DNA of 64,000 nucleotides, taken from Escherichia coli O127:H6 str. E2348/69 (lineage in GTDB: Bacteria > Pseudomonadota > Gammaproteobacteria > Enterobacterales > Enterobacteriaceae). The stretch lies in NCBI RefSeq assembly GCF_000026545.1, contig NC_011601.1; one strand, given 5' to 3'. Every line of letters starts with the position of its first letter. Position 1 is the stretch's first letter. Position numbers and translations under genes: made by a program. Positions 9,346 through 28,300 of the stretch are shown piece by piece. Under the pieces are notes generated by a model. It saw only the letters and a program-made list of their open reading frames with translations. It did no database searches and had not been told where the DNA came from.

Positions 9346-9566
9346 AAAATTAAATAATTTCATTGGTTTTATTAATGTACTTGAGATGAATATTTTCACC
9401 AGATTAGCATGACGGTGCATTCTTCAAGGCATATATGGTTAATAGTATCTTCAGTAGCATGCATAAGTATTGAGATTTTTTATGCCAGCTACGAATATAT
9501 TGCATATCTCATTCTCTGTAAGATTTCTTATTAGCACTTAGCCATTTCTAGTTAAAAGGATTAATT

Positions 9567-10449
9567 ATGAGTTTTGCAGCTACTGATTATCCATCCGGCG
9601 CACTAGCTGGATCGGGTACACACAATGTGACTTTGAGCGGCAGCGCAGTTCCTGATGGAATGTTACTGTTTGCAAACTTAGGGGGGACAGAAACAGTAGG
9701 GGAACTATTTACTTATTCTATTAAATTAAAAACTCCTGACATCCTGAACCTGGACTATGTTTCCCCCGCAGCCAACCTGCAGCTCAAACCGATGGTGGGC
9801 AAAGATCTGTGCGTCAATATCGAACTGGATGGCGGCGGAAAACGGTATATCAGCGGGCTGGTGACGGCGGCACGCGTGGCCGGTCATCAAGGACGCTCGG
9901 TGGTGTATGAACTGCGACTCGAACCGTGGTTAAAAACACTGACCCACACTAGTGACTACAAAGCGTTTCAGAATAAAAACGTGGTGGACATCCTGGATGA
10001 GGTACTGGATGAGTACCCCTGGCCAGTGGAAAAACGATTGGTAGAAAACTATCCGACTCGCGCCTGGCAGGTGCAGTACGGTGAAACAGATTTCGATTTT
10101 ATTCAGCGCCTGATGCAGGAGTGGGGTATCTACTGGTGGTTTGAGCACAACGAGAACAGTCATACGTTAGTGCTGGCTGATGCCATTAATGTCCACAAGG
10201 CATGCGCAGATTCGCCGCTGGTGTGTTATTACCAGAAAGGGCTGAAACTGGACAAGGAGTTTATCCATACCATCACAGCAAATGAAAGCCTGCGCAGCGG
10301 ACAGTGGGTGCTGAATGATTTCGACTTTATGAAGCCGCGTTCACTGCTGAAGAGCACTGTGGCTAATCCGCGTGAAACCGGCCTTGCTGAATATGAGTAC
10401 TACGAATGGCCGGGAGACTACTTCACAAAGAGTGAAGGTGAAATGCTGA
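9567..10449 (+). pseudogene. vgrG: vgrG (T6SS spike) N-terminal fragment
   Basis: gp27-like N-terminal region incl. ...[28 protein letters not shown]...; homology ends near residue ~300 and the frame then runs into nonsense; the gp5/OB-fold and C-terminal parts are absent. Confidence 0.7.
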
Positions 10450-11606
10450 CACGCATCCGAATGGAAGAACAGCGTAGCCCCGGTAGTCGGGTACAGGGCA
10501 GCGGCCAGGCAGCTTTACGACCCCGGCGGGCGACTGAAGCGCAGGGAGACATACAGCGGGATGCGCGGGGTGGTTCCGGACACGTTCACGGACCGGCAGT
10601 ACAGCTACAGCGGCGAGGATGAACTGCTGAAGACGCGGCACAGCCGGCGGGGGGAAACGGACTACTTCTATGACACCACGGGGCGCATCACGGCGTGTCG
10701 CTCGGAGGATGAGGGGTATCTGGCGAGCTGGGAGTACGACGCGGCGGGCAACCTGCTGGACAGGCGCGCGGGGGGAAGGGCCACGGCAGAAAACAGCGTG
10801 GTGCTGTTCAACCGGCTGATGTCTTACCGTGGTGTGCACTACCGTTATGACGAATTTGGCCGTGCGGTGGAAAAGGAGGGGCGGAGCGGAACACAGAGTT
10901 ACCGTTATGATGCGGAACACCGGATGGTGGAAGTGACGACAGCGCGGGAGACATACCGGTATGTGTACGATGCGCTGGGGAGGCGGACGGAAAACAGCAC
11001 ATCAGCCCTGACGGTAAACCGTACAACCGGACAAAATTTTTATGGGACGGAATGCGGCTGGCGCAGGAGAACAGGCCGGAGGGAATAAGCAGCCTGTATA
11101 TCTACAGCGACCCGGGAAGTTATGAACCGCTGGCGCGGTTGGATAAGGCGGGGAAAGAGGGACCGAACCGGATACTGTATTTTCACACGGATGTGAACGG
11201 TGCTCCGGAAGAGATGACGGACAGCAACGGGAAAATTGTGTGGGAGACGGGGTATCAGGTCTGGGGTAACACGATACAGGAGAAGGACCACGGCGGGGTG
11301 GAGCAGAACCTGCGATACCAGGGGCAGTACCTCGACAGGGAAACGGGGCTGCACTACAATCTGCACAGGTACTATGATCCGGATGTCGGGCGGTTCATGG
11401 TAACGGACCCGATAGGGCTGCGGGGCGGGTTAAACTTATATGCTTATGCGCCGAATCCGTTAACGTATATTGATCCTCTTGGTCTTTGTAAATTAAGGGG
11501 AAGTAATGGGCGCTTTAGAAGTGCACAGAATATTCAGGAAGAAATAGGCGGCCTGCCCAATTTTTCAGGAAAAACCCCCAGGGCAAATACGGCAAACTTT
11601 GCGTAA
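10450..11606 (+). pseudogene. rhs 3' core fragment with frameshift, ending in the DPxGL junction and a short C-terminal tip
   Basis: YD repeats in frame 1 ([10 protein letters not shown]..., YRYDEFGRAVEKEG..., YRYVYDALGRRTE) continue in frame 0 (PYNRTKFLWDGMRLAQE...LHYNLHRYYDPDVGRFMVTDPIGL...PLTYIDPLGL); frame switch at roughly 10980..11000 near an A run. Confidence 0.7.
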
Positions 11607-11916
11607 TCGAGTTTATTCTTCGGTACAAGCGCATAGTGGAGGAGAGGTCTGGACAAAAGCATTACCTGACGGAAATACTGTTGCAGTGAGAATTGACCCA
11701 GCAAATCCTCGCTCACCTTCACATTATGCCGATGCTGTACCTCATGCTCATATTGAAACAGTTCCAACATCCAGTGTTTCTAATGGGAATTATCGTCCGA
11801 GAGACGTGATGGGCAGGCATACTGCCACTGGTGGGGGGTCTGACCGAGGAACGAATCCGAATTATAACGCTGATGTTCACATTCCAATGTCTCCGGGACG
11901 ATCCCCATATAATTAA
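11599..11916 (+). CDS. uncertain ORF; possibly an out-of-frame continuation of the Rhs C-terminal toxin domain
   Basis: 105 aa ORF with TTG start and no clear RBS, beginning just downstream of A/C homopolymer runs at the end of the rhs tip. Confidence 0.25.
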   Translation: MRNRVYSSVQAHSGGEVWTKALPDGNTVAVRIDPANPRSPSHYADAVPHAHIETVPTSSVSNGNYRPRDVMGRHTATGGGSDRGTNPNYNADVHIPMSPGRSPYN

Positions 11917-11927
11917 TGTGAGGTTTT

Positions 11928-12206
11928 ATGAATATCCGAAATCAATATAATGAAGCCTTAAATAAATTAGATGTTGATGTTAATGATGGTTTGAGAGATT
12001 TAATAAACATATATTGTGTGGCTATTGATTCTTTTGAAAATGATATCGTTGACTCGATTGCTTTATACGTGATTGATATGGAAAATAAAGATACTTGTCG
12101 ATATCTACAAGAAATATTATCAGAGAATAAAGATCCTTATTTAGTAAAAGAGTTTAATGTATGGATAAAAGAAATTAAGAAAAATATTAAAATAAAAGCC
12201 GGGTAA
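11928..12206 (+). CDS. small AT-rich ORF in the position of an Rhs immunity gene
   Basis: 92 aa; GTGAGG RBS 6 nt upstream of ATG; very low GC; directly downstream of the rhs C-terminal tip. Confidence 0.45.
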   Translation: MNIRNQYNEALNKLDVDVNDGLRDLINIYCVAIDSFENDIVDSIALYVIDMENKDTCRYLQEILSENKDPYLVKEFNVWIKEIKKNIKIKAG

Positions 12207-12232
12207 GAAATTAAATCTTCCCGGCTTTTTAT
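12196..12232. terminator. rho-independent terminator candidate
   Basis: AAGCCGGG...CCCGGCTT stem followed by TTTTT. Confidence 0.4.
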
Positions 12233-12235
12233 TAT

Positions 12236-12436
12236 TTAACTCTCGTTCAGCACACTAAACATCGCGTCACACATCCCCTTAATCGCCTGTTTAACCTGAT
12301 AAAGTTCCCTGCGCAGTTCCTGTACTTCGTTGTTATCCGCAAGCAGGATCAGACAACCTTTCGAGATCTTCACGGTAACGCCCGTGCCGATCTCAAATCC
12401 CGCTTCTCTCAGCCATTTGGCGCTGATTTTGAGCAC
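12236..12436 (-). pseudogene. 5'-truncated SymE-like (AbrB/SpoVT-fold) toxin homolog
   Basis: ...PVLKISAKWLREAGFEIGTGVTVKISKGCLILLADN... resembles the SymE core [33 protein letters not shown] (recalled); an in-frame stop lies just upstream, so ~45 N-terminal residues are missing. Confidence 0.5.
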
Positions 12437-12450
12437 TGGCGCGTGATGCA

Positions 12451-12657
12451 GTGGGCCAGCTCATGGCAAAGGAGACAGCAGATAGCCGTACGGAATATGT
12501 CTATGATGCGGCAGACCTGCTACTGGAAATCCGCTGCAGATGGTCGTATGCCCGGGAAACGGACGCACCGGAGATTATCTGCTTCAGTTACGACAGACTG
12601 GGACAGTTGCTGACCGAGGAGACGGTGCAAAAATTCAAAATTATCCATTTAACCTAA
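12451..12657 (+). pseudogene. orphan Rhs YD-repeat fragment
   Basis: 68 aa ORF with YD-repeat-like units (TEYVYDAADLLLEI, FSYDRLGQLL); no full gene context. Confidence 0.35.
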
Positions 12658-12959
12658 AAGTTCGTTGAGTTTTTCTGCATTGCCGGTAATTTTGGCATCT
12701 CCTTTGCCCGTGGCTTGTTTCAGCGTCTATAATGGGCGTTAATAAATTGGCAAGTCGGGAACTTGATGTTTTCTTAATGGTATGTTGGCAGAAGAATATG
12801 TTCTGCAATTTGACGATTTGTTGATGCTTTATTTAAAAGGGTGTAGTGCAAATATCTACAATTTCAAGTAGGCATTATTGTCGTAAAAACGCATCACCGG
12901 ACACACGACATTCACAATGTATGTTAATTTTACTGACAACTTTCAAAAGGAGCACAATC

Positions 12960-13936: not shown

Positions 13937-14782
13937 ATGACGCCCATTCTGAATCATTATTTTGCCCGTATTAACTGGTTGGGAGCTGCTGCGGCCAATA
14001 TTGATACGCTGCGTGCATTGCACCTGAAACACAATTGCACCATTCCGTTTGAAAATCTCGACGTTTTGCTGCCGAGGGAAATACAGCTTGATGATCAATC
14101 GCTGGAAGATAAACTGGTGATAGCCCGTCGTGGCGGTTACTGTTTTGAGCAGAATGGCGTGTTTGAGCGGGTGTTACGCGAGCTGGGGTTTAACGTTCGC
14201 AGCTTGTTAGGTCGCGTAGTGTTATCAAATCCGCCAGCATTACCGCCGCGCACCCATCGTTTGCTGTTGGTGGAACTGGAAGGGGAAAAATGGATTGCTG
14301 ATGTCGGTTTCGGTGGGCAGACGCTAACCGCGCCGATTCGTTTAATGCCGGATATCATGCAAACCACGCCACACGGAGAGTATCGGTTGTTGCAAGAGGG
14401 TGATGATTGGGTATTGCAGTTTAATCATCATCAGCACTGGCAGTCGATGTACCGTTTTGATCTCTGCGAGCAGCAACAAAGCGATTATGTGATGGGCAAT
14501 TTCTGGTCGGCGCACTGGCCGCAGTCGCATTTTCGCCATCATTTGCTGATGTGTCGCCATTTGCCGGACGGTGGCAAGCTAACGCTGACCAATTTTCATT
14601 TTACCCATTATGAAAATGGGCACGCAGTTGAGCAGCGAAATCTACCAGATGTGGCGCCGTTATATGCCGTGATGCAGGAACAGTTTGGTCTGGGCGTAGA
14701 TGATGCGAAACATGGCTTTACTGTGGATGAGTTAGCGCTGGTGATGGCGGCGTTTGATACGCACCCGGAGGCGGGAAAATAA
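13937..14782 (+). CDS. nhoA: arylamine N-acetyltransferase
   Basis: 281 aa; MTPILNHYFARINW... with ...RGGYCFEQNG... active-site Cys region. Confidence 0.9.
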   Translation: MTPILNHYFARINWLGAAAANIDTLRALHLKHNCTIPFENLDVLLPREIQLDDQSLEDKLVIARRGGYCFEQNGVFERVLRELGFNVRSLLGRVVLSNPPALPPRTHRLLLVELEGEKWIADVGFGGQTLTAPIRLMPDIMQTTPHGEYRLLQEGDDWVLQFNHHQHWQSMYRFDLCEQQQSDYVMGNFWSAHWPQSHFRHHLLMCRHLPDGGKLTLTNFHFTHYENGHAVEQRNLPDVAPLYAVMQEQFGLGVDDAKHGFTVDELALVMAAFDTHPEAGK

Positions 14783-14789
14783 TTTATGT

Positions 14790-14875
14790 CAGGTTGCCGG
14801 ATGTGGCGTAAATGCCTTATCCGGCATACATTAGCCCGGTTGTAGACCTGATAAGCGAAGCGCATCAGGCAACGG
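14790..14875. repeat. BIME: two REP palindromic units
   Basis: TGCCGGATGTGGCGTAAATGCCTTATCCGGCATAC and GTAGACCTGATAAGCGAAGCGCATCAGGCA match REP consensus families. Confidence 0.55.
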
Positions 14876-14877
14876 TT

Positions 14878-15771
14878 TCAGAGTTCAATTGCCCATTCGG
14901 CATGAAACAAAATCACCGCCGTGCCAGAAATGGTGACTTTCTCCGGTTGGTTATCGCGAATTGTCACCGTCACTTCAATTACGCCGTCACGCCCTAATGC
15001 GCGCCCTTGATGGCCTTTAACACGCAACACGTTGCCATCGTGGGGCAATACGTTGTGATGTACTAACCATGCACCCATCGGGCCATTGGCATTGCCAGTC
15101 ACCGGATCTTCCACAATACCAATCGCAGGCGAGAACATGCGACCATCGGTTTCGTTTTTGCCTGGGCGGATCTGGAACGGGAAGAAACCATTGCAGCCAA
15201 TCTGCTTGCTGATTGCGGTCAGCGCAGCAAGGTCAGGCGAAAGGGCGTCGATATCCACTTCCGGCTTCAGTGGAATCATCACTTTTGAGTGTCCTGTGGT
15301 TGCCACCTGGATCGGCAAATCCAGCAGAATATTGTCTTCGGTAAGATGCAATGCGTTGAGAATTGCCGCACGTGTTTCACCTTCCAGCGGTGGTTCAAAG
15401 CCCGGCGCACCTTGTTCCAGCGAAATACGATAATCATCGTTATGCTTTTCGATAGTCACGCGGTGTTTTCCTGCCAGCGATGTTTGCCAGACCGTGCAAT
15501 TTCCTAAACCTAACACCTTTGCACGTACATAGTGCGCAGCTACTGTCGCGTGACCACAAATCGGAACTTCAACCGTTGGCGTAAAGTAGCGGATGTGCAC
15601 ATCGCTGTCGTCGCTGTGCAGCAGAAAAGCAGTTTCCGAATGACCTAATTCGCGGGCGATAAGCTGCATTTGCGCTTCGCTGAGATTATCGGCGGGGAAA
15701 ACAACACCGGCAGAATTGCCGCGAAATGGTTGAGAGGTAAAAGCATCGACGTGGTAAACCTGCGGTTTCAT
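14878..15771 (-). CDS. yddE: PhzF-family isomerase-like protein
   Basis: 297 aa; MKPQVYHVDAFTSQPFRGNSAGVV... typical PhzF N-terminus. Confidence 0.9.
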   Translation of the reverse strand: MKPQVYHVDAFTSQPFRGNSAGVVFPADNLSEAQMQLIARELGHSETAFLLHSDDSDVHIRYFTPTVEVPICGHATVAAHYVRAKVLGLGNCTVWQTSLAGKHRVTIEKHNDDYRISLEQGAPGFEPPLEGETRAAILNALHLTEDNILLDLPIQVATTGHSKVMIPLKPEVDIDALSPDLAALTAISKQIGCNGFFPFQIRPGKNETDGRMFSPAIGIVEDPVTGNANGPMGAWLVHHNVLPHDGNVLRVKGHQGRALGRDGVIEVTVTIRDNQPEKVTISGTAVILFHAEWAIEL

Positions 15772-17223: not shown

Positions 17224-18767
17224 TATTCACCCTCCGCTTTGTCGCGCACTTCGGTGATGTTGATGGCATCGATACGGCTACTGTTGAACAGGTTGAATTT
17301 GCTGTCCGAACCGTGGCAACCGTCGCCAAAGGTAAAACCGCAGCCGTTGCGTTCTGCGAAGGCATCGCCCGCCATTTCCCGATGGCTTGTCGGGATGACG
17401 AAACGATCTTCATAGTTGGCAATGGCGAGGTAACGATACATCTCTTCGACCTGGGCGACGCTCAGACCTACTTCGTCGATGGCACGAGTATCAGTAACGC
17501 CTTCCACGGTTTGTGAACGCATATAGTGGCGCATCGCCATCATCCGTTTCAGCGCCCGCAGTACCGGACCGGTATCACCGGCACTCAACATATTGGCGAG
17601 ATATTGCACCGGAATACGCAGGCTTTCGATGGCGGGCAGCACGCCTTCGCTTTTCGGCAAACCTCCCGCATCAGCGTAGGACTGAATCGGTGACAGCGGA
17701 GGAACGTACCAGACCATCGGCAGGGTGCGATATTCAGGGTGCAGCGGTAGTGCCAGTTTCCAGTCCATCGCCATTTTGTAGACAGGCGAACGCTGGGCAG
17801 CGTCAATCACGTTTTGTGGAATACCTTGTTTCAGGGCTTCTTCGATCACCGAGGGATCGTGCGGATCGAGGAACACTTCGCACTGGCGTTCATAGAGATC
17901 GACCTCTCGTTCGGTACTCGCTGCTTCTTCGATGCGGTCGGCGTCGTAGAGCAGCACGCCAAGATAACGAATGCGACCCACGCAGGTTTCGGAGCAGACT
18001 GTTGGCTGACCGGACTCAATTCGCGGATAACAGAAAATACATTTTTCTGACTTACCGCTTTTCCAGTTGAAGTAGATTTTTTTGTATGGGCAACCGCTAA
18101 TGCACAAACGCCAGCCACGGCATTTATCCTGATCGATCAGCACAATGCCGTCTTCTTCGCGTTTGTAGATAGCGCCGCTGGGGCAGGTCGCTACACAACT
18201 GGGGTTAAGGCAGTGTTCGCACAGGCGCGGCAGGTACATCATGAAGGTGTTTTCAAACTGCCCGTACATCTCCTTTTGCATGGCCTCGAAGTTGCGGTCG
18301 CGAGCTCGTTTTTCAAATTCGCCGCCCAGCAGTTCTTCCCAGTTTGGGCCCCAGATCACTTTGTCCATCCGTTTGCCGTCAATCAGTGAACGCGGACGGG
18401 CGGTGGGAATATGTTTGCCTTCCGGCGCGCTATGCAAATGTTCGTAGTAGAAGGTGAAAGGTTCGTAGTAATCGTCAATCTGCGGCACTACCGGGTTGGC
18501 GAAAATTTTGGTAATCACGCCCATTTTGCTGCCCAGACGCGGGCGTATCTTGCCATTCACATCACGCACCCAGCCGCCTTGCCACTCATCCTGATCTTCC
18601 CAGTTTTTCGGGTAACCAATGCCCGGTTTGGTTTCGACGTTGTTAAACCATGCGTACTCCATGCCTTCGCGTCCGGTCCAGACGTTTTTACAGGTCACCG
18701 AACAGGTATGGCAGCCGATACATTTATCGAGGTTAAGCACCATGCCGACTTGCGAACGTATTTTCAT
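17223..18767 (-). CDS. narY: nitrate reductase 2 beta subunit (Fe-S)
   Basis: 514 aa with ferredoxin-type cysteine clusters (CIGCHTCSVTC..., CEHCLNPSCVATCP...). Confidence 0.9.
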   Translation of the reverse strand: MKIRSQVGMVLNLDKCIGCHTCSVTCKNVWTGREGMEYAWFNNVETKPGIGYPKNWEDQDEWQGGWVRDVNGKIRPRLGSKMGVITKIFANPVVPQIDDYYEPFTFYYEHLHSAPEGKHIPTARPRSLIDGKRMDKVIWGPNWEELLGGEFEKRARDRNFEAMQKEMYGQFENTFMMYLPRLCEHCLNPSCVATCPSGAIYKREEDGIVLIDQDKCRGWRLCISGCPYKKIYFNWKSGKSEKCIFCYPRIESGQPTVCSETCVGRIRYLGVLLYDADRIEEAASTEREVDLYERQCEVFLDPHDPSVIEEALKQGIPQNVIDAAQRSPVYKMAMDWKLALPLHPEYRTLPMVWYVPPLSPIQSYADAGGLPKSEGVLPAIESLRIPVQYLANMLSAGDTGPVLRALKRMMAMRHYMRSQTVEGVTDTRAIDEVGLSVAQVEEMYRYLAIANYEDRFVIPTSHREMAGDAFAERNGCGFTFGDGCHGSDSKFNLFNSSRIDAINITEVRDKAEGE

Positions 18768-21700
18768 TTTTTCGCCTCCTGAACCTGATCGCGACCTTCA
18801 TCATCCAGCCAGTTAACGTTCTTCATTTTGCGGATCATAATGAATTCGTCGCGGCTCGAGCCGACGGTGCCGTAGTAGTTAAAGCCCCAGGCCAGCTGCG
18901 CGTAACCGCCAATCATATGCGTTGGTTTCGGGCAAACGCGGGTAACCGAGTTATGAATGCCGCCGCGCATGCCAGTTACTTCCGAACCAGGAATATTCAT
19001 AATGCGTTCCTGGGCGTGATACATCATGGTCATGCCCGGCGGTACACGTTGGCTGACCACCGCGCGGGCAGTCAGCGCGCCGTTGGCGTTAAATACTTCC
19101 ACCCAGTCGTTATCGACAATGGTCAGTTCTTGGGCATCGGTTTCGCTGATCCAGACAATCGGTCCACCGCGAGAGAGCGTCAGCATTAGCAGGTTTTCAC
19201 TGTAGGTTGAGTGAATGCCCCATTTCTGGTGCGGCGTCAGGAAGTTAAGTGCTTTTTCCGGGAAGCCGTTTGGCGGTATCTGGCGCATTTCACTGACGCT
19301 ACGGGTGTCGATAGGCGGGCGATAAGCCACCAGACTTTCACCAAAAGCACGCATCCACGGATGATCCTGATAGAGTTGCTGGCGTCCCGACAGCGTGCGC
19401 CACGGAATTAACTCATGAACGTTGGTGTATCCCGCGTTATAGGAAACGTGATCGCTTTCCAGACCAGACCATGTGGGGCTGGAGATAATTTTACGCGGCT
19501 GCGCCTGAATATCGCGAAAGCGAATCTTCTCGTCCTCTTTGTGCAGCGCCAGATGGGTATGTTCGCGTCCGGTGATCTCGCCCAGCGCTTGCCACGCTTT
19601 GACTGCAACATGGCCGTTGGTTTCCGGTGCCAGCGCCAGAATCACTTCTGATGCGTCAATGGCGGTATCAATCAGCGGACGCCCCTGTGCCGGGCCATCA
19701 CGCTTGGTGTAATTGAGTTTACCGAGGAAATCGATTTCATCCTGGGTATTCCACGAAATCCCTTTACCGCCGTTGCCAAGTTTGTCCATCAATGGCCCGA
19801 GTGAGGTAAAGCGTTCATAGGTAGCAGGGTAGTCGCGCTCCACCGCCACAATATTCGGCGCGGTTTTGCCTGGAATCAGATCGCATTCACCTTTGCGCCA
19901 GTCGAGCACTTCACACGGCTGTGAAAGCTCTGCCGGGGAGTCATGCAGCAGTGGTTGTAATACCACGTCGGTTTCTTTGCCAAGATGGCCCACGCACACT
20001 TGCGAAAAGGCTTTGGCAATACCTTTGTAGATTTCCCAGTCGCTGCGTGATTCCCACGCCGGATCGACCGCCGCAGATAGGGGATGAATAAACGGATGCA
20101 TATCCGAGGTGTTCATATCGTCTTTTTCGTACCAGGTGGCGGTGGGCAGAACGATATCGGAGAACAGGCAGGTACTGGACATACGGAAGTCGAGCGTCAC
20201 CAGCAGGTCGAGCTTGCCTTCAATCGCCGCAGTTTGCCACTCGACTTCTTCTGGTTTGATCCCGTCGCTGGCACCGAGTTCCTGACCCTGAATCCCACTT
20301 TCGGTTCCCAGCAGATACTTCTGCATATACTCGTGGCCTTTGCCGGAGGAGCCAAGCAGGTTAGAACGCCAGACAAACAAATTACGCGGATGATTGCTGC
20401 CGCTATCTGGTTGTTCGCAGGCCATGCGTAAATCGCCCGATTTCAGCGCCTGGGCGGTAAATTCTGTGGGGGATAATCCGGCCTTGTCGGCTTCAGCTTT
20501 AATCCCGAGCGGGTTACGCCCCAACTGCGGCGCAGAAGGTAGCCAGCCCATACGTTCGGCGCGAACGTTGAAATCAATCAGGTGACCGCTGTATTTACTG
20601 GCATCGGCGAGCGGTGAGAGCAATTCCTGCGCGGTGACTTTTTCATAGCGCCACTGGCTGGAGTGATTGTAGAAAAACGAGGTGCTGTTCATCTGGCGCG
20701 GTGGCCGGTTCCAGTCGAGCGCAAAGGCCAGAGGCAGCCAGCCGGTTTGTGGGCGCAGTTTTTCCTGACCGACATAGTGCGCCCAGCCGCCGCCGCTTTG
20801 CCCGACACAACCGCAGAAGATCAGCATATTGATCATCCCGCGGTAGTTCATGTCCATGTGATACCAGTGGTTAACACCTGCGCCGAGAATAATCATCGAG
20901 CGCCCATGCGTTTTATGAGCGGTATCGGCAAATTCACGGGCGATGGTTTCAATATACTGGCGCGGTACGCCGGTAATTTGCTCGCCCCAGGCAGGGGTGT
21001 AAGGTTTGATTTCAGCGTAATCTTTCGCGCTGTTTTCATCTTCCAGCCCGCGATCGAGGCCGTAATTTGCCAGTACCAGATCATAAACGCTGACCACCGG
21101 ACAGGTGCTACCATCGGCTAATGTCAGGTTTTTAACGGGCAATTGGCGCACCAGGACAGGATTGTGTTTTACGCTGCGAAAATGTGGATTTTCAATGCCG
21201 CCAAAGTAGGGGAAGGCCACGCCTGCAACGGCGTCATGTTGACCGAGCAGAGTTAACGACAATTCGGTTTCCGTACCGGCGGCAATGGATTCCAGGTTCC
21301 ATTTGCCTTTTTCTCCCCAGCGAAAACCAATCGAACCGTTCGGCACTACCAATTCACCTGCGGTATTAACTGCCACGGTTTTCCACTGCGGATTATTGCT
21401 TTCGCCCAGTCCATCCACCAGGTCAGATGCGCGGACCATGCGCCCGGGAACGTAGCTGCCGTCGTCGCGAGGTTCCAGCATTACCAGCATCGGCATGTCG
21501 CTGTAGCGGCGGCAGTAGTTGATAAAATAATCGCTGGGATTATCGAGATGAAACTCTTTTAAAATGACATGGCCCATTGCCATTGCCAGGGCACTATCAG
21601 TGCCTTGTTTCGGTGCCAGCCACTGGTCGCACAATTTGGCCACTTCAGAGTAGTCAGGGGTAATGGCGATGGTTTTAGTGCCTTTGTAGCGTACTTCGGT

Positions 21701-22504
21701 AAAGAAATGGGCGTCCGGCGTACGTGTCTGCGGTACGTTAGACCCCCAGGCGATGATGTAACTGGAGTTATACCAGTCGGCAGATTCCGGTACGTCGGTT
21801 TGCTCACCCCAGGTCATCGGCGAGGCGGGCGGCAGGTCGCAATACCAGTCGTAGAAGCTTAAACAGGTGCCACCTAACAGCGACAGATAGCGTGTTCCGG
21901 CGGCGTAAGAAACCATCGACATCGCCGGAATCGGCGAGAAACCGGCAACGCGATCCGGGCCATAGGTTTTGATGGTCCAGACGTTAGCAGCGGCAATCAG
22001 CTGATTTAGCTCCTGCCAGTTGGAGCGGATAAAGCCACCGCGTCCACGCACTTGTTTGTAGCTCAGGCACTTTTGCGGATCGTTCATAATCGATGCCCAC
22101 GCCAGTACCGGATCGCTGTGTTGCTTGAGGGCTTCGCGCCACAGTTCAATCAGTCGTTTACGAATGAGCGGGTATTTCAGGCGGTTAGCGCTGTAGAGAT
22201 ACCAGGAGTAACTTGCGCCACGCGGGCAGCCGCGAGGTTCATGATTTGGCAGGTCAGGGCGAGTGCGCGGGTAGTCGGTCTGTTGGATTTCCCAGGTCAC
22301 CAGACCATTTTTAACGTAGATTTTCCAGCTACAGGAGCCTGTACAGTTAACACCGTGGGTGGAACGCACGATTTTGTCGAACTGCCAACGCTGGCGATAG
22401 CTGTCCTCCCAGTCGCGGTTGCTATGCATCACCTGTCCGTGACCATCGGCAAAGGTTTCGCCCTTTTGTTTGAAGTAGCGAAAGCGATCCAAAAGTTTAC
22501 TCAT
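18764..22504 (-). CDS. narZ: nitrate reductase 2 alpha subunit (molybdopterin)
   Basis: ORF 18764..22627; start placed at MSKLLDRFRYFKQKGETFADGHGQ... (1246 aa). narZ rather than narG because narU/yddE/yddG flank it. Confidence 0.9.
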   Translation of the reverse strand: MSKLLDRFRYFKQKGETFADGHGQVMHSNRDWEDSYRQRWQFDKIVRSTHGVNCTGSCSWKIYVKNGLVTWEIQQTDYPRTRPDLPNHEPRGCPRGASYSWYLYSANRLKYPLIRKRLIELWREALKQHSDPVLAWASIMNDPQKCLSYKQVRGRGGFIRSNWQELNQLIAAANVWTIKTYGPDRVAGFSPIPAMSMVSYAAGTRYLSLLGGTCLSFYDWYCDLPPASPMTWGEQTDVPESADWYNSSYIIAWGSNVPQTRTPDAHFFTEVRYKGTKTIAITPDYSEVAKLCDQWLAPKQGTDSALAMAMGHVILKEFHLDNPSDYFINYCRRYSDMPMLVMLEPRDDGSYVPGRMVRASDLVDGLGESNNPQWKTVAVNTAGELVVPNGSIGFRWGEKGKWNLESIAAGTETELSLTLLGQHDAVAGVAFPYFGGIENPHFRSVKHNPVLVRQLPVKNLTLADGSTCPVVSVYDLVLANYGLDRGLEDENSAKDYAEIKPYTPAWGEQITGVPRQYIETIAREFADTAHKTHGRSMIILGAGVNHWYHMDMNYRGMINMLIFCGCVGQSGGGWAHYVGQEKLRPQTGWLPLAFALDWNRPPRQMNSTSFFYNHSSQWRYEKVTAQELLSPLADASKYSGHLIDFNVRAERMGWLPSAPQLGRNPLGIKAEADKAGLSPTEFTAQALKSGDLRMACEQPDSGSNHPRNLFVWRSNLLGSSGKGHEYMQKYLLGTESGIQGQELGASDGIKPEEVEWQTAAIEGKLDLLVTLDFRMSSTCLFSDIVLPTATWYEKDDMNTSDMHPFIHPLSAAVDPAWESRSDWEIYKGIAKAFSQVCVGHLGKETDVVLQPLLHDSPAELSQPCEVLDWRKGECDLIPGKTAPNIVAVERDYPATYERFTSLGPLMDKLGNGGKGISWNTQDEIDFLGKLNYTKRDGPAQGRPLIDTAIDASEVILALAPETNGHVAVKAWQALGEITGREHTHLALHKEDEKIRFRDIQAQPRKIISSPTWSGLESDHVSYNAGYTNVHELIPWRTLSGRQQLYQDHPWMRAFGESLVAYRPPIDTRSVSEMRQIPPNGFPEKALNFLTPHQKWGIHSTYSENLLMLTLSRGGPIVWISETDAQELTIVDNDWVEVFNANGALTARAVVSQRVPPGMTMMYHAQERIMNIPGSEVTGMRGGIHNSVTRVCPKPTHMIGGYAQLAWGFNYYGTVGSSRDEFIMIRKMKNVNWLDDEGRDQVQEAKK

Positions 22505-22539
22505 GACATAACTCCTGCTCCAGGAATGAATTGGGATCT

Positions 22540-22596
22540 GATGCCTTGTCGGATGAGACACGGTTGTAGCCTGATAAGACGTGTCAGGCATCGATC
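22540..22596. repeat. REP-like palindromic element between narU and narZ
   Basis: GATGCCTTGTCGGATGAGACACGGTTGTAGCCTGATAAGACGTGTCAGGCATC. Confidence 0.45.
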
Positions 22597-22598
22597 TC

Positions 22599-23987
22599 TT
22601 ATTTTTGGCTGAACTTCCGCCGACCATAAACCAGCCAGGTCAGTAGCACACAAACGATGTAGAAGATTAAAAACACTTTCATCGCGCCCACCGGAGAGCC
22701 GGTCATATTGAGCGACATGCCAAACGCCTGCGGAATAAAAAAGCCGCCCACTGCGCCAATGGCTGAGATAAAGCCCAGAGCGGCTGCCGTTTCGGTGACG
22801 GCTTCTCTTTGAGCTTGCTCATCACTACCGCCTTTCATCTTCACCCGATAAATTGTTATCTGGCGAAAGATGACGGCGATCATCTGGAAAGTAGAACCAC
22901 TTCCCAGACCCGCGGTCAGAAACAGCCCCATAAATACGGCGTAAAATGCGATGAAATTACCGGAGCCTGTGCCCGGTAAGGTAAGGAACAGCAGGGCGCT
23001 GAAAATCGCCATAAAAATGAAGTTGATCAACGTCACCCGCACGCCGCCGAATTTATCGGAAATAGCACCACCAACCGATCGCGCGATGGCACCGATAAAT
23101 GGGCCAAAGAACGCCAGGCGCAGAATATTCACATCCGGGAACTGGGTTTTTGCCAGCATGGCAAAACCCGCAGAAAAACCGATAAACGAACCGAAGGTGG
23201 CAAGATAAAGCAGGCTCAGCAGCCAGAGATGCAGGCGTTGTAAGACAGGGAGCTGGTCGGCAATTGAGGTGCGTGAACTGGCGATATCATTCATCCCTGA
23301 CCAGGCGGCGATCGTGGCAATCGCCAGTAATGGCACCCAAATCCATGCGGCATTCGCCAGCGACATCACCGAACCGTCGGCCTGCGGTACGCCATTGACG
23401 CCGAGAAAGGCAAATACGGGTACAAAAATGACCAGCGGTGCAACCAGCTGCATCACACTTACACCTAAGTTTCCTAATCCGCCATTAATCCCAAGAGCGC
23501 TCCCTTGTTTGGCTTTTGGAAAGAAGAAACTGATATTGCCCATGCTCGAAGCAAAGTTCGCACCTGCAAAACCGCATAGCAAAGCGATAACGATAAATAT
23601 CCCAAAAGGGGTATTCGGATTTTGCACGGCAATTCCGAGCCAGACGCAAGGAATAATCAGGATTGCAGTACTAAAAACCGTCCATCGGCGTCCACCGAAT
23701 ATAGGCACCATAAAGGAGTAGGGGACACGCAATAATGCGCCAGAAACGGAGGGTAATGCGGTTAATAAAAAGAGTTGATCGGTAGTGAAATTAAAACCGA
23801 TTTTATTGAGATTAACAGTAACTGCGCTAAATAGCATCCAGACACAGAAGGCAAGAAGTAGACAACTGACTGATATCCAGAGGTTTCTTCGTGCAATATG
23901 CTTTCCTTTATTTTCCCAGAAGGCCGGATTTTCTGGTTTCCAGTCGCGTAAAAGATAACGACTATTTTTCTCATTTTGCAGTGCCAT
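22599..23987 (-). CDS. narU: nitrate/nitrite transporter (MFS)
   Basis: ORF 22599..24029; start placed at MALQNEKNSRYLLRDWKPENPAFW... (462 aa). Confidence 0.9.
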   Translation of the reverse strand: MALQNEKNSRYLLRDWKPENPAFWENKGKHIARRNLWISVSCLLLAFCVWMLFSAVTVNLNKIGFNFTTDQLFLLTALPSVSGALLRVPYSFMVPIFGGRRWTVFSTAILIIPCVWLGIAVQNPNTPFGIFIVIALLCGFAGANFASSMGNISFFFPKAKQGSALGINGGLGNLGVSVMQLVAPLVIFVPVFAFLGVNGVPQADGSVMSLANAAWIWVPLLAIATIAAWSGMNDIASSRTSIADQLPVLQRLHLWLLSLLYLATFGSFIGFSAGFAMLAKTQFPDVNILRLAFFGPFIGAIARSVGGAISDKFGGVRVTLINFIFMAIFSALLFLTLPGTGSGNFIAFYAVFMGLFLTAGLGSGSTFQMIAVIFRQITIYRVKMKGGSDEQAQREAVTETAAALGFISAIGAVGGFFIPQAFGMSLNMTGSPVGAMKVFLIFYIVCVLLTWLVYGRRKFSQK

Positions 23988-24265
23988 ATTGTTCCTCACA
24001 TGCACACATTGGTAATGAAAAAAAGACAAAACAGGAGGAGGAGGTAAGGCGCAATAGCCAGTTATTAGAATTAAGGATGAATCAGGTGAAGTGCTGATTA
24101 GAAGAATAGATAAGAAAGCGTAACTGCGGGGGCAGAATGTGGATTAAACAGACAGATATGTGTTACTAAATGTAACTAAAATGGCTTTCTGGTATTTGAA
24201 ATTTATTTTTTAATATTGTCAGAATTTATCTGATTAACTGCCGGGCCGTAGACCCGACAATTATT

Positions 24266-25378: not shown

Positions 25379-28300
25379 ATGGACGTCAGTCGCAGACAAT
25401 TTTTTAAAATCTGCGCGGGCGGTATGGCGGGAACAACAGTAGCGGCATTGGGCTTTGCCCCAAAGCAAGCACTGGCTCAGGCGCGAAACTACAAATTATT
25501 ACGCGCTAAAGAGATCCGTAACACCTGCACATACTGTTCCGTAGGTTGCGGGCTATTGATGTATAGCCTGGGTGATGGCGCGAAAAACGCCAGAGAAGCG
25601 ATTTATCACATTGAAGGTGACCCGGATCATCCGGTAAGCCGTGGTGCGCTGTGCCCGAAAGGGGCCGGTTTGCTGGATTACGTCAACAGCGAAAACCGTC
25701 TGCGCTACCCGGAATATCGTGCGCCAGGTTCTGATAAATGGCAGCGCATTAGCTGGGATGAAGCATTCTCCCGTATTGCGAAGCTGATGAAAGCTGACCG
25801 TGACGCTAACTTTATTGAAAAGAACGAGCAGGGCGTAACGGTAAACCGTTGGCTTTCTACCGGTATGCTGTGTGCCTCCGGTGCCAGCAACGAAACCGGG
25901 ATGCTGACTCAAAAATTTGCCCGCTCCCTCGGGATGCTGGCGGTAGACAACCAGGCGCGCGTCTGACACGGACCAACGGTAGCAAGTCTTGCTCCAACAT
26001 TTGGTCGCGGTGCGATGACCAACCACTGGGTGGATATCAAAAACGCTAACGTCGTAATGGTGATGGGTGGTAACGCTGCGGAAGCGCATCCCGTCGGTTT
26101 CCGCTGGGCGATGGAAGCGAAAAACAACAACGATGCAACCTTGATCGTTGTCGATCCCCGTTTTACGCGTACCGCTTCTGTGGCGGATATTTACGCACCT
26201 ATTCGTTCCGGTACGGACATTACGTTCCTGTCTGGCGTTTTGCGCTACCTGATCGAAAACAACAAAATCAACGCCGAATACGTTAAGCATTACACCAACG
26301 CTAGCCTGCTGGTGCGTGATGATTTTGCTTTCGAAGATGGCCTGTTCAGCGGTTATGACGCTGAAAAACGCCAGTACGATAAATCGTCCTGGAACTATCA
26401 GTTCGATGAAAACGGCTATGCGAAACGCGATGAAACACTGACTCATCCGCGCTGTGTGTGGAACTTGCTGAAAGCGCACGTTTCCCGCTACACGCCGGAC
26501 GTAGTAGAAAACATCTGCGGTACGCCAAAAGCCGACTTCCTGAAAGTGTGTGAAGTGCTGGCCTCCACCAGCGCACCGGATCGCACAACCACCTTCCTGT
26601 ACGCGCTGGGCTGGACGCAGCACACCGTGGGTGCGCAGAACATCCGTACTATGGCGATGATCCAGTTGCTGCTCGGTAACATGGGTATGGCCGGTGGCGG
26701 CGTGAACGCATTGCGTGGTCACTCCAACATTCAGGGCCTGACTGACTTAGGCCTGCTCTCTACCAGCCTGCCAGGTTATCTGACGCTGCCGTCAGAAAAA
26801 CAGGTTGATTTGCAGTCGTATCTGGAAGCGAACACGCCGAAAGCGACGCTGGCTGATCAGGTGAACTACTGGAGCAACTATCCGAAGTTTTTCGTTAGCC
26901 TGATGAAATCTTTCTACGGCGATGCCGCGCAGAAAGAGAACAACTGGGGCTACGACTGGCTGCCGAAGTGGGACCAGACCTACGACGTCATCAAGTATTT
27001 CAACATGATGGATGAAGGTAAAGTCACCGGTTATTTCTGCCAGGGCTTTAACCCGGTTGCGTCCTTCCCGGACAAAAACAAAGTGGTGAGCTGCCTGAGC
27101 AAGCTGAAGTACATGGTGGTTATCGATCCGCTGGTGACTGAAACCTCTACCTTCTGGCAGAACCACGGCGAGTCGAACGATGTCGATCCGGCATCTATTC
27201 AGACTGAAGTATTCCGTCTGCCTTCGACCTGCTTTGCTGAAGAAGATGGTTCTATCGCTAACTCCGGTCGCTGGTTGCAGTGGCACTGGAAAGGTCAGGA
27301 CGCGCCGGGCGAAGCACGTAACGACGGCGAAATTCTGGCGGGTATCTACCATCATCTGCGCGAGCTGTACCAGGCCGAGGGTGGTAAAGGCGTAGAACCG
27401 CTGATGAAGATGAGCTGGAACTACAAGCAGCCGCACGAACCGCAGTCTGACGAAGTGGCGAAAGAGAACAACGGCTATGCGCTGGAAGATCTCTATGACG
27501 CTAATGGCGTGCTGATTGCGAAGAAAGGTCAGTTGCTGAGTAGCTTTGCGCATCTGCGTGATGACGGTACAACCGCATCGTCTTGCTGGATCTACACCGG
27601 TAGCTGGACAGAGCAGGGCAACCAGATGGCTAACCGCGATAACTCCGACCCGTCCGGTCTGGGGAATACGCTGGGATGGGCCTGGGCGTGGCCGCTCAAC
27701 CGTCGCGTACTCTACAATCGTGCTTCGGCGGATATCAACGGTAAACCGTGGGATCCGAAACGGATGCTGATCCAGTGGAACGGTAGCAAGTGGACGGGTA
27801 ACGATATTCCGGACTTCGGCAATGCCGCACCGGGTACGCCAACCGGGCCGTTTATCATGCAGCCGGAAGGGATGGGACGCCTGTTTGCCATCAACAAAAT
27901 GGCGGAAGGTCCGTTCCCGGAACACTACGAGCCAATTGAAACGCCGCTGGGCACTAACCCGTTGCATCCGAACGTGGTGTCTAACCCGGTTGTTCGTCTG
28001 TATGAACAAGACGCGCTGCGGATGGGTAAAAAAGAGCAGTTCCCGTATGTGGGTACGACCTATCGTCTGACGGAGCACTTCCACACCTGGACCAAGCACG
28101 CATTGCTCAACGCAATTGCTCAGCCGGAACAGTTTGTGGAAATCAGCGAAACGCTGGCGGCGGCGAAAGGCATTAATAATGGCGATCGTGTCACTGTCTC
28201 CAGCAAGCGTGGCTTTATCCGCGCGGTGGCTGTGGTAACGCGCCGTCTGAAACCGCTGAATGTAAACGGTCAGCAGGTTGAAACGGTGGGTATTCCAATC

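Follow-up and report, generated by a model that had tools for sequence, protein, structure and literature searches.

The literature on REP and BIME elements goes back about 40 years. According to it, REP units owe their spread to TnpAREP/RayT, a Y1 transposase associated with REPs; the E. coli TnpAREP tolerates no mutation of the GTAG motif and cleaves at CC|T. Three REP sequences are known from E. coli, and these were printed by Durrant et al. (PMC11208160) and served here as the match reference. In the Bachellier/Gilson classification (PMC3333891), the BIME-2 class is composed of alternating y and z2 units with a short linker. The BIME-1 or RIP class is composed of y and z1 units with a long IHF-binding L linker, and the REPIN/RAYT system (REPtron) is composed of paired inverted REPs with a single-copy Y1 transposase. 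Of the REPs of E. coli, about 60% are situated in gaps between convergent genes, about 30% of the convergent gaps contain a REP, and the convergent pairs with a REP were found to have higher expression in a K-12 preprint of 2026. REPs have been described as terminators that are leaky and depend in part on Rho, and as barriers to exonucleases, both strongly dependent on context. In the supplementary tables of the same preprint, one of the K-12 elements, REP118, has the label 'Convergent, yddE / nhoA, 1534958..1534884'.

The window, which is the whole stretch of 64,000 nucleotides of E. coli O127:H6 str. E2348/69 that was analysed, received its gene coordinates from the RefSeq annotation of NZ_CP059840.2 (reverse complement, 100% identity). 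The genes nhoA (13937-14782, + strand) and yddE (14878-15771, - strand) were found to be convergent and to have a common spacer of 95 nt (14783-14877). The nhoA stop codon TAA (14780-14782, + strand) was followed by a y-type REP unit at 14795-14829 on the - strand, which reads GTAT...GGCA on that strand and as the iREP TGCCGGATGTGGCGTAAATGCCTTATCCGGCATAC on the + strand. The 12-nt linker ATTAGCCCGGTT (14830-14841) was present between the CTAC-side end of the y unit and the GTAG of the next unit, followed by the presence of a z2-type REP unit GTAGACCTGATAAGCGAAGCGCATCAGGCA at 14842-14871 (+ strand) with its 5′ GTAG intact at 14842-14845. The yddE stop codon TGA was found at 14878-14880 (- strand). 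The nhoA stop codon was separated by 12 nt from the base at which pairing in the y hairpin begins (14795), and the yddE stop codon by 7 nt from the main z2 stem (14870). The two REPs were opposite in orientation (y on the - strand and z2 on the + strand), their GTAG-side ends pointed inward at the linker, and the pair was wholly extragenic. Two small ORFs across the spacer, 14608-14865 (-) and 14812-14997 (+), are unannotated and overlap the REPs, and were taken as spurious.

The first scan was made by blastn-short with consensus REPs, which were the same or nearly the same as the K-12 units found 3′ of fdnI or flanking rayT. Compared with the published sequences, the y unit was identical at 32 of 35 positions of the y 35-mer (3 mismatches) and the z2 unit at 27 of 29 positions (2 mismatches), and each was represented by one match in the 64 kb and by none in 100 shuffles. 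In nhmmer scans with profiles built solely from non-orthologous REP copies, the y profile matched at E 6.2e-11 on the - strand over its full length (model positions 1-35) and the z2 profile at E 2.5e-8 on the + strand, also over its full length. The first-pass annotation had placed a two-unit BIME at 14790-14875 between nhoA and yddE, and the element was confirmed by these profile matches; the gene names were also correct. The 95-nt spacer was found to match a median of at least 39 places per genome in 5425 of the 5426 complete E. coli genomes, and its sequence therefore belongs to a dispersed multi-copy family. Rfam contains no REP family, and the sole gathering-level match in the window was the SECIS element of fdnG. 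By its y + z2 composition, the nhoA/yddE element is a BIME of the BIME-2 type. The conserved GTAG 5′ of the palindrome was absent from the y unit in the window and in K-12 alike (GTAT on the - strand, CATAC on the + strand), and this unit is, judging from its sequence, a mutated member of the REP family.

The K-12 profile matches at 1534882-1534916 and 1534929-1534958 were found to coincide with the REP118 span 1534884-1534958, and the RefSeq record of K-12 contains no repeat features in the nhoA/yddE region. The REP pair of the window is thus already known as the orthologue of K-12 REP118, with which it shares the locus, the flanks, the y-linker-z2 layout and the spacer length of 95 nt, 90 of the 95 bases being identical. 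The difference from REP118 amounted to five substitutions. The z2 unit of the window was identical to the consensus at 28 of 30 positions, whereas the K-12 z2 unit was identical at 25 of 30, and the y unit of the window contained two C-to-T changes, through which one closing G-C pair became G-U.

The composition of y and z2 units in alternation with a short linker was the same as in BIME-2. The nhoA/yddE element differed from that class in containing one pair only, in being joined via the GTAG/CTAC ends, which is the position of the between-pair motif, and in its 12-nt linker, which is unique to this locus and was found at one place per genome in E. coli. A recurrent BIME motif was ruled out for the linker, since it was present only at nhoA/yddE among the loci compared. 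The likeness to BIME-1 consisted of a REP pair containing y, and this class was excluded because the partner of y was matched by the z2 profile and only at E 0.76 by the z1 profile, and because a linker of 12 nt is too short for L. As in REPIN/RAYT, two inverted REPs were present with a short spacer. Their outer arms can base-pair over 11 nt with 91% complementarity, and the units belong to the same REP family as those flanking the K-12 rayT. However, the GTAG ends point inward at nhoA/yddE and outward in the rayT-flanking pairs, the GTAG of the y unit is mutated, and the strain is without rayT at the canonical locus.

The nhoA/yddE units would originally have been dispersed by TnpAREP/RayT, as is described for the family. 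The GTAG to GTAT change in the y unit was found to abolish the CC|TAC cleavage site as well, and this unit is probably a TnpAREP substrate no longer. At the canonical yafL-lfhA locus of E2348/69, rayT was absent; the interval between yafL and the lfhA remnant was found to contain hicA and hicB (record 3907294-3907921), whereas K-12 contains rayT there. The replacement by hicAB was described by Ton-Hoang et al. as one of two routes of tnpAREP loss and was found by them in place of rayT in 24 strains, all but two of clade B1. Because the y unit contains GTAT without a CC|T site and the canonical locus, at which rayT was checked, contains hicAB and not rayT, the nhoA/yddE pair is most likely immobile in E2348/69.

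The y unit was found to fold into an RNA hairpin of -21.7 kcal/mol on the + strand and -19.1 kcal/mol on the - strand (z-scores of -5.0 and -5.8 against shuffles), with a lower stem of 9 bp followed by an internal mismatch and an upper stem of 3 bp, and this stem was kept in 12 Escherichia and Citrobacter orthologues. The z2 hairpin was weaker, with -9.2 kcal/mol on the + strand and -12.4 kcal/mol on the - strand (z-scores of -2.4 and -3.45). A GC-rich stem-loop right after the stop codon on both strands is a feature shared with intrinsic terminators. However, a scan of 14500-15200 for U-tract terminators returned zero terminator-like sites, and no U tract was present after the y or the z2 hairpin; a hairpin of the intrinsic type was found elsewhere in the window, at 6146-6172. 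In the preprint tables, the y hairpin of K-12 (1534877-1534917, -25.1 kcal/mol) is given as a bidirectional overlapping termination site of yddE:nhoA in log phase and is assigned to REP118, and an in vitro Rho-dependent region is given 18-51 nt past REP118, antisense inside nhoA.

In the proposed mechanism, the nhoA mRNA would end in or run into the y hairpin, 12 nt past its stop codon, and the yddE mRNA would end in or run into the z2 hairpin, 7 nt past its stop codon. The two hairpins would act as leaky and bidirectional stop or pause signals, partly dependent on Rho, and would block 3′-to-5′ exonucleases. In the part of PMC12306157 in which Liang et al. 2015 is reported, REPs separated from the stop codon by under 16 nt are described as lowering translation, and both nhoA/yddE hairpins were found within that distance. 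Because both begin less than 15 nt from a stop codon, the translation of nhoA and yddE may also be lowered by the stalling of terminating ribosomes. By analogy with the K-12 orthologue, from which the experimental support comes, the pair in E2348/69 would constitute a bidirectional 3′-end hairpin module. No general gain of mRNA half-life from REPs was found in the K-12 preprint, which counts against a functional reading.

One genome per species was scanned for NhoA relatives with 10-kb flanks, and the sequence 3′ of nhoA was compared. In E. albertii the y-linker-z2 pair was found as well, CCTAC and GTAGG both being intact and the linker reading AGTAGCCCGGTT. Seven Citrobacter genomes contained a single REP at the corresponding position, with its orientation also the same, immediately ahead of the yddE stop codon; this REP was y-type in six of the seven and z1-like in C. 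gillenii, and several of the Citrobacter orthologues were found to keep CCTAC/GTAG in the y unit. The spacer downstream of nhoA in Salmonella enterica subsp. diarizonae was short and without a REP, and Enterobacter and Klebsiella contained their own REP types next to other neighbour genes. Because a y unit is found at this position in Citrobacter too, it appears to be older than the split of Escherichia and Citrobacter, unless separate insertions took place in the two lineages. Before the split of E. coli and E. albertii, the linker and the z2 unit were added, followed later by the GTAG to GTAT change.

The BIME was identical to that of E. albertii at 71 of 77 positions (92%) versus 62.8% at the third codon positions of nhoA (binomial P 3e-9), and the non-REP bases of the spacer were identical at 12 of 18 positions. 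Either selection or gene conversion from other copies of the REP could account for this surplus of identity. The linker was identical to that of E. albertii at 11 of 12 positions (P 0.03), and this argues against gene conversion because no other genomic copy is present as a donor; the conservation of the linker thus points weakly to selection.

Within E. coli, the 1101-nt nhoA/yddE locus was found in 5163 of 5426 genomes. The exact query length was present in 24 of the 28 full-length matches sampled, and therefore the pair is not expanded within the sampled E. coli. In strain STN0717-11, a 12-nt deletion of TAGCCCGGTTGT (corresponding to window 14832-14843) was found to remove the linker together with part of the z2 GTAG, so that the REPs abut, and strain KV7 contained one SNP in the linker. 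In strain E57 (L088 240-1530, from NZ_CP121153.1), IS621 was found to sit in the y unit at ATCAGGCCT|AC. IS621 is an IS110-family element with a bridge-RNA recombinase that targets REPs, and its natural 11-nt target is ATCAGGCCTAC with a CT core (PMC11208160), which E57 contains exactly, occupied by IS621; its presence in the y unit of E57 supports the REP identity of that unit. The y unit of the window reads ATCCGGCATAC, in which the core of the IS621 target is lost, and the z2 unit reads ATCAGGTCTAC on the - strand, with one mismatch to the target.

The linker was found to be inverted in a divergent genome labelled E. coli (L005 10886-10897, from NZ_JAATUR010000023.1), where it reads ATCCGGGCTAAT against the reverse complement AACCGGGCTAAT, being identical at 11 of 12 positions to the reverse complement and at 5 of 12 directly. 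No full-length match of at least 99% to this allele was found in the 5426 complete E. coli genomes. A divergent Escherichia genome (L050) contained a linker of 22 nt. A flip of the linker via recombination between the inverted REP arms is a possibility suggested by the L005 allele, and it would be a simple source of linker diversity in BIMEs.

A REP-like palindrome had also been noted at 22540-22596 between narU and narZ. The two genes were found to be in tandem and not convergent, both lying on the - strand (narZ 18764-22504, narU 22599-23987). The spacer contained a y iREP stump TGTCGGATGAG at 22547-22557 (+ strand), the remainder of which was lost in a 31-nt deletion according to the alignment, followed by part of the linker and by a z-like REP unit, GTAGCCTGATAAGACGTGTCAGGCA at 22566-22590 (+ strand), which is shortened, has a stem of 6 bp and was weakly matched by the z1 profile at 22569-22590 with E 0.022. 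In the narZ-narU spacers of E. albertii (L006), L050 and L005, a full y iREP, TGTCGGATGCGGCGTTAATGCCTTATCCGACCTAC or a close variant, was found ahead of a linker and a z unit, and these full y units were matched at E 2e-6 to 2e-5. The z-like hairpin of the window was -14.7 kcal/mol on the + strand (z-score -3.9) and -8.2 kcal/mol on the transcribed - strand (z-score -1.5), and K-12 was found to lack a further 13 nt inside the z-like unit. The alignment identifies the narU-narZ element as a decaying BIME relic descended from a full REP pair; the convergent setting did not hold. Across E. coli, the narZ-narU spacer (22505-22598) was present in two length alleles, with a query span of 501 or 488 nt, which differ by a 13-nt indel. 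The K-12 genes yddJ, yddK and yddL were absent between narU and yddG (window 23988-24265).

Downstream of yncE, where a further REP-like palindrome had been placed at 6100-6130, the match to a y REP was confined to its 3′ half, TCACGCCGCATCCGGCA, at 6109-6125 (+ strand), which was identical at 17 of 17 bases to y positions 19-35 (E 0.005) and was without a partner arm. The stretch 6090-6130 folds no better than its shuffles (z-scores of -0.8 and -0.15). K-12 differs at 2 of the 17 bases of the half-match and gave no profile match there, the part of the preprint tables covered has no REP entry between REP117 and REP118, and no full REP was present downstream of yncE in the relatives compared. 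In the coding sequence of fdnG (26689-26713, - strand), a y-like stretch of 16-23 nt was found with E 0.004-0.008, and the match at 26712-26697 (E 0.008) was dropped as a REP candidate, being inside the coding sequence. Half-length REP matches at this level therefore arise by chance, as is indicated by the equal strength of the fdnG match, and 6109-6125 would be at best a truncated REP remnant. The half-REP might mark the endpoint of a deletion.

The real palindrome next to it was a GC-rich hairpin of 9 bp, TTGCCCGGC/GCCGGGCAA, with TTTT behind it at 6146-6172 (hairpin 6146-6168), which stood out against shuffles in its fold energies of -19.2 and -18.8 kcal/mol (z-scores of -4.9 and -4.7). The K-12 orthologue of this hairpin is given in the preprint tables as a bidirectional terminator of ansP:yncE with no REP assigned, and 6146-6172 is an ordinary terminator-type hairpin common to yncE and ansP, and not a REP. 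The spacer between yncE and ansP is 112 nt long in Escherichia, and several hundred extra bases, apparently with a small ORF, were present there in Citrobacter and Salmonella (L007, L012, L026).

Apart from these sites, no further REPs were found by the nhmmer profile scan in the 64-kb window, including about 34 kb of backbone shared with K-12 (29.7-64 kb, from fdnI to the fimbrial cluster). The junction of fdnI and yddM in E2348/69 contained only a hairpin with a T-run terminator (29969-30025), whereas the K-12 junction (REP120 region; L003 36992-37400) contained a cluster of four REP units in two tandem 178-nt repeats, each with a copy of the terminator, a y and a z2 unit. The islet at 7677-12959 between ansP and pptA, with GC down to 0.36, was also without a REP. 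Two hypothetical genes were found in it, together with a VgrG-like pseudogene ('phage late control D') in truncated form, a fragment of an Rhs core and a toxin of the SymE family, in place of the K-12 segment yncG-yncH-rhsE-ydcD-yncI-ydcC. About 353 REP-associated gene pairs are given in the preprint for the 4.64-Mb K-12 genome. A density of about one locus per 13 kb follows from the K-12 counts, and about 0.4 loci would be expected in the 5.3-kb islet. Zero REPs is the likeliest outcome for the islet whatever its origin, and the absence is uninformative because only about 0.4 loci are expected and about 34 kb of backbone is equally without a REP.

The first-pass annotation had described the REPs as elements of convergent junctions that help to separate the backbone from the islet. 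The former part was found to hold for the intact nhoA/yddE pair, and not for the tandem relic of narU-narZ or the half-unit beside the yncE terminator; as for the latter part, the islet is indeed without REPs, but so is the long backbone stretch. The annotation is thus a correct call of a known repeat, with an over-reading of two fragments and an unsupported inference on the island.

Several other features of the window were recorded. A SECIS_3 match of Rfam was present in fdnG at 25961-26019 (+ strand; 84.3 bits, E 1.4e-18), which is the element for the insertion of selenocysteine into formate dehydrogenase-N. The K-12 segment curA-mcbR was represented by pseudogene scraps (window 2359-2582). 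The ddpXABCDF operon of K-12 was absent (window 34996-35183), and osmC and dosP are therefore convergent neighbours.

The nhoA/yddE element of E2348/69 is very probably what its parts indicate, an orthologue of REP118 that is a y + z2 BIME, immobile in this strain and acting as a bidirectional 3′-end hairpin module for the two genes. Chance palindromes or ordinary gene-specific terminators outside any repeat family would account for the hairpin at 6146-6168 near yncE and could account for the half-match at 6109-6125; for 14795-14871 such an origin is hardly credible, as no shuffle gave a match, the E values were 1e-8 to 1e-11, related sequences were present at about 39 or more places per genome and no U tract was found. 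A role at the level of DNA, in which the element would be a preferred site of binding and cleavage by DNA gyrase at a convergent junction, a place of positive supercoil build-up, is unlikely. BIME-2 elements are enriched in sites of cleavage by gyrase, which fall mostly in y units, and this does not depend on transcription (PMC6379681); the element has the y + z2 composition and the convergent setting. However, the gyrase-rich BIME-2s are multi-copy arrays (sucC-sucB, tldD-yhdP; PMC6379681) whereas a single pair was found here, and nhoA and yddE did not occur in the part of the PMC6379681 supplementary tables covered.

The pair may possibly also be a fossil left by the selfish dispersal of REPs, functionally neutral, tolerated between convergent genes and kept similar by gene conversion, although this is not the favoured explanation. 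It would agree with the presence of hicAB in place of rayT, with the mutated GTAG of the y unit, with the decay by deletions of two neighbouring REP sites in the window, with the occurrence of linker-deleted and IS621-interrupted alleles in viable strains, with the complete absence here of the BIME cluster that follows fdnI in K-12, and with the lack of a general REP effect on mRNA half-life. Against neutrality, a bidirectional termination site has been mapped at the K-12 orthologue, the identity of the BIME with that of E. albertii is 92% versus about 63-67% for the adjacent non-REP spacer and the synonymous sites, the locus-specific linker is still identical at 11 of 12 positions without a donor, and the two-unit structure was at unchanged length in 24 of the 28 full-length sampled E. 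coli genomes. The stronger claim that the whole pair, including its locus-specific linker, is under selection as one regulatory module that ends and protects both transcripts and damps both translations is somewhat doubtful, and is put forward tentatively.

For the use of REPs in genome comparison, the absence of REPs is unusable for delimiting small islands at this density, REP calls from weak half-matches need comparative support, and the REP content is polymorphic even on the backbone, the BIME at fdnI being present in K-12 and not in E2348/69. For the family itself, the nhoA/yddE locus offers a small example of the life history of REPs, with an apparently old y unit and a z2 unit that was added later, followed by the loss of the transposase site, the capture of IS621, and the deletion and inversion of the linker.
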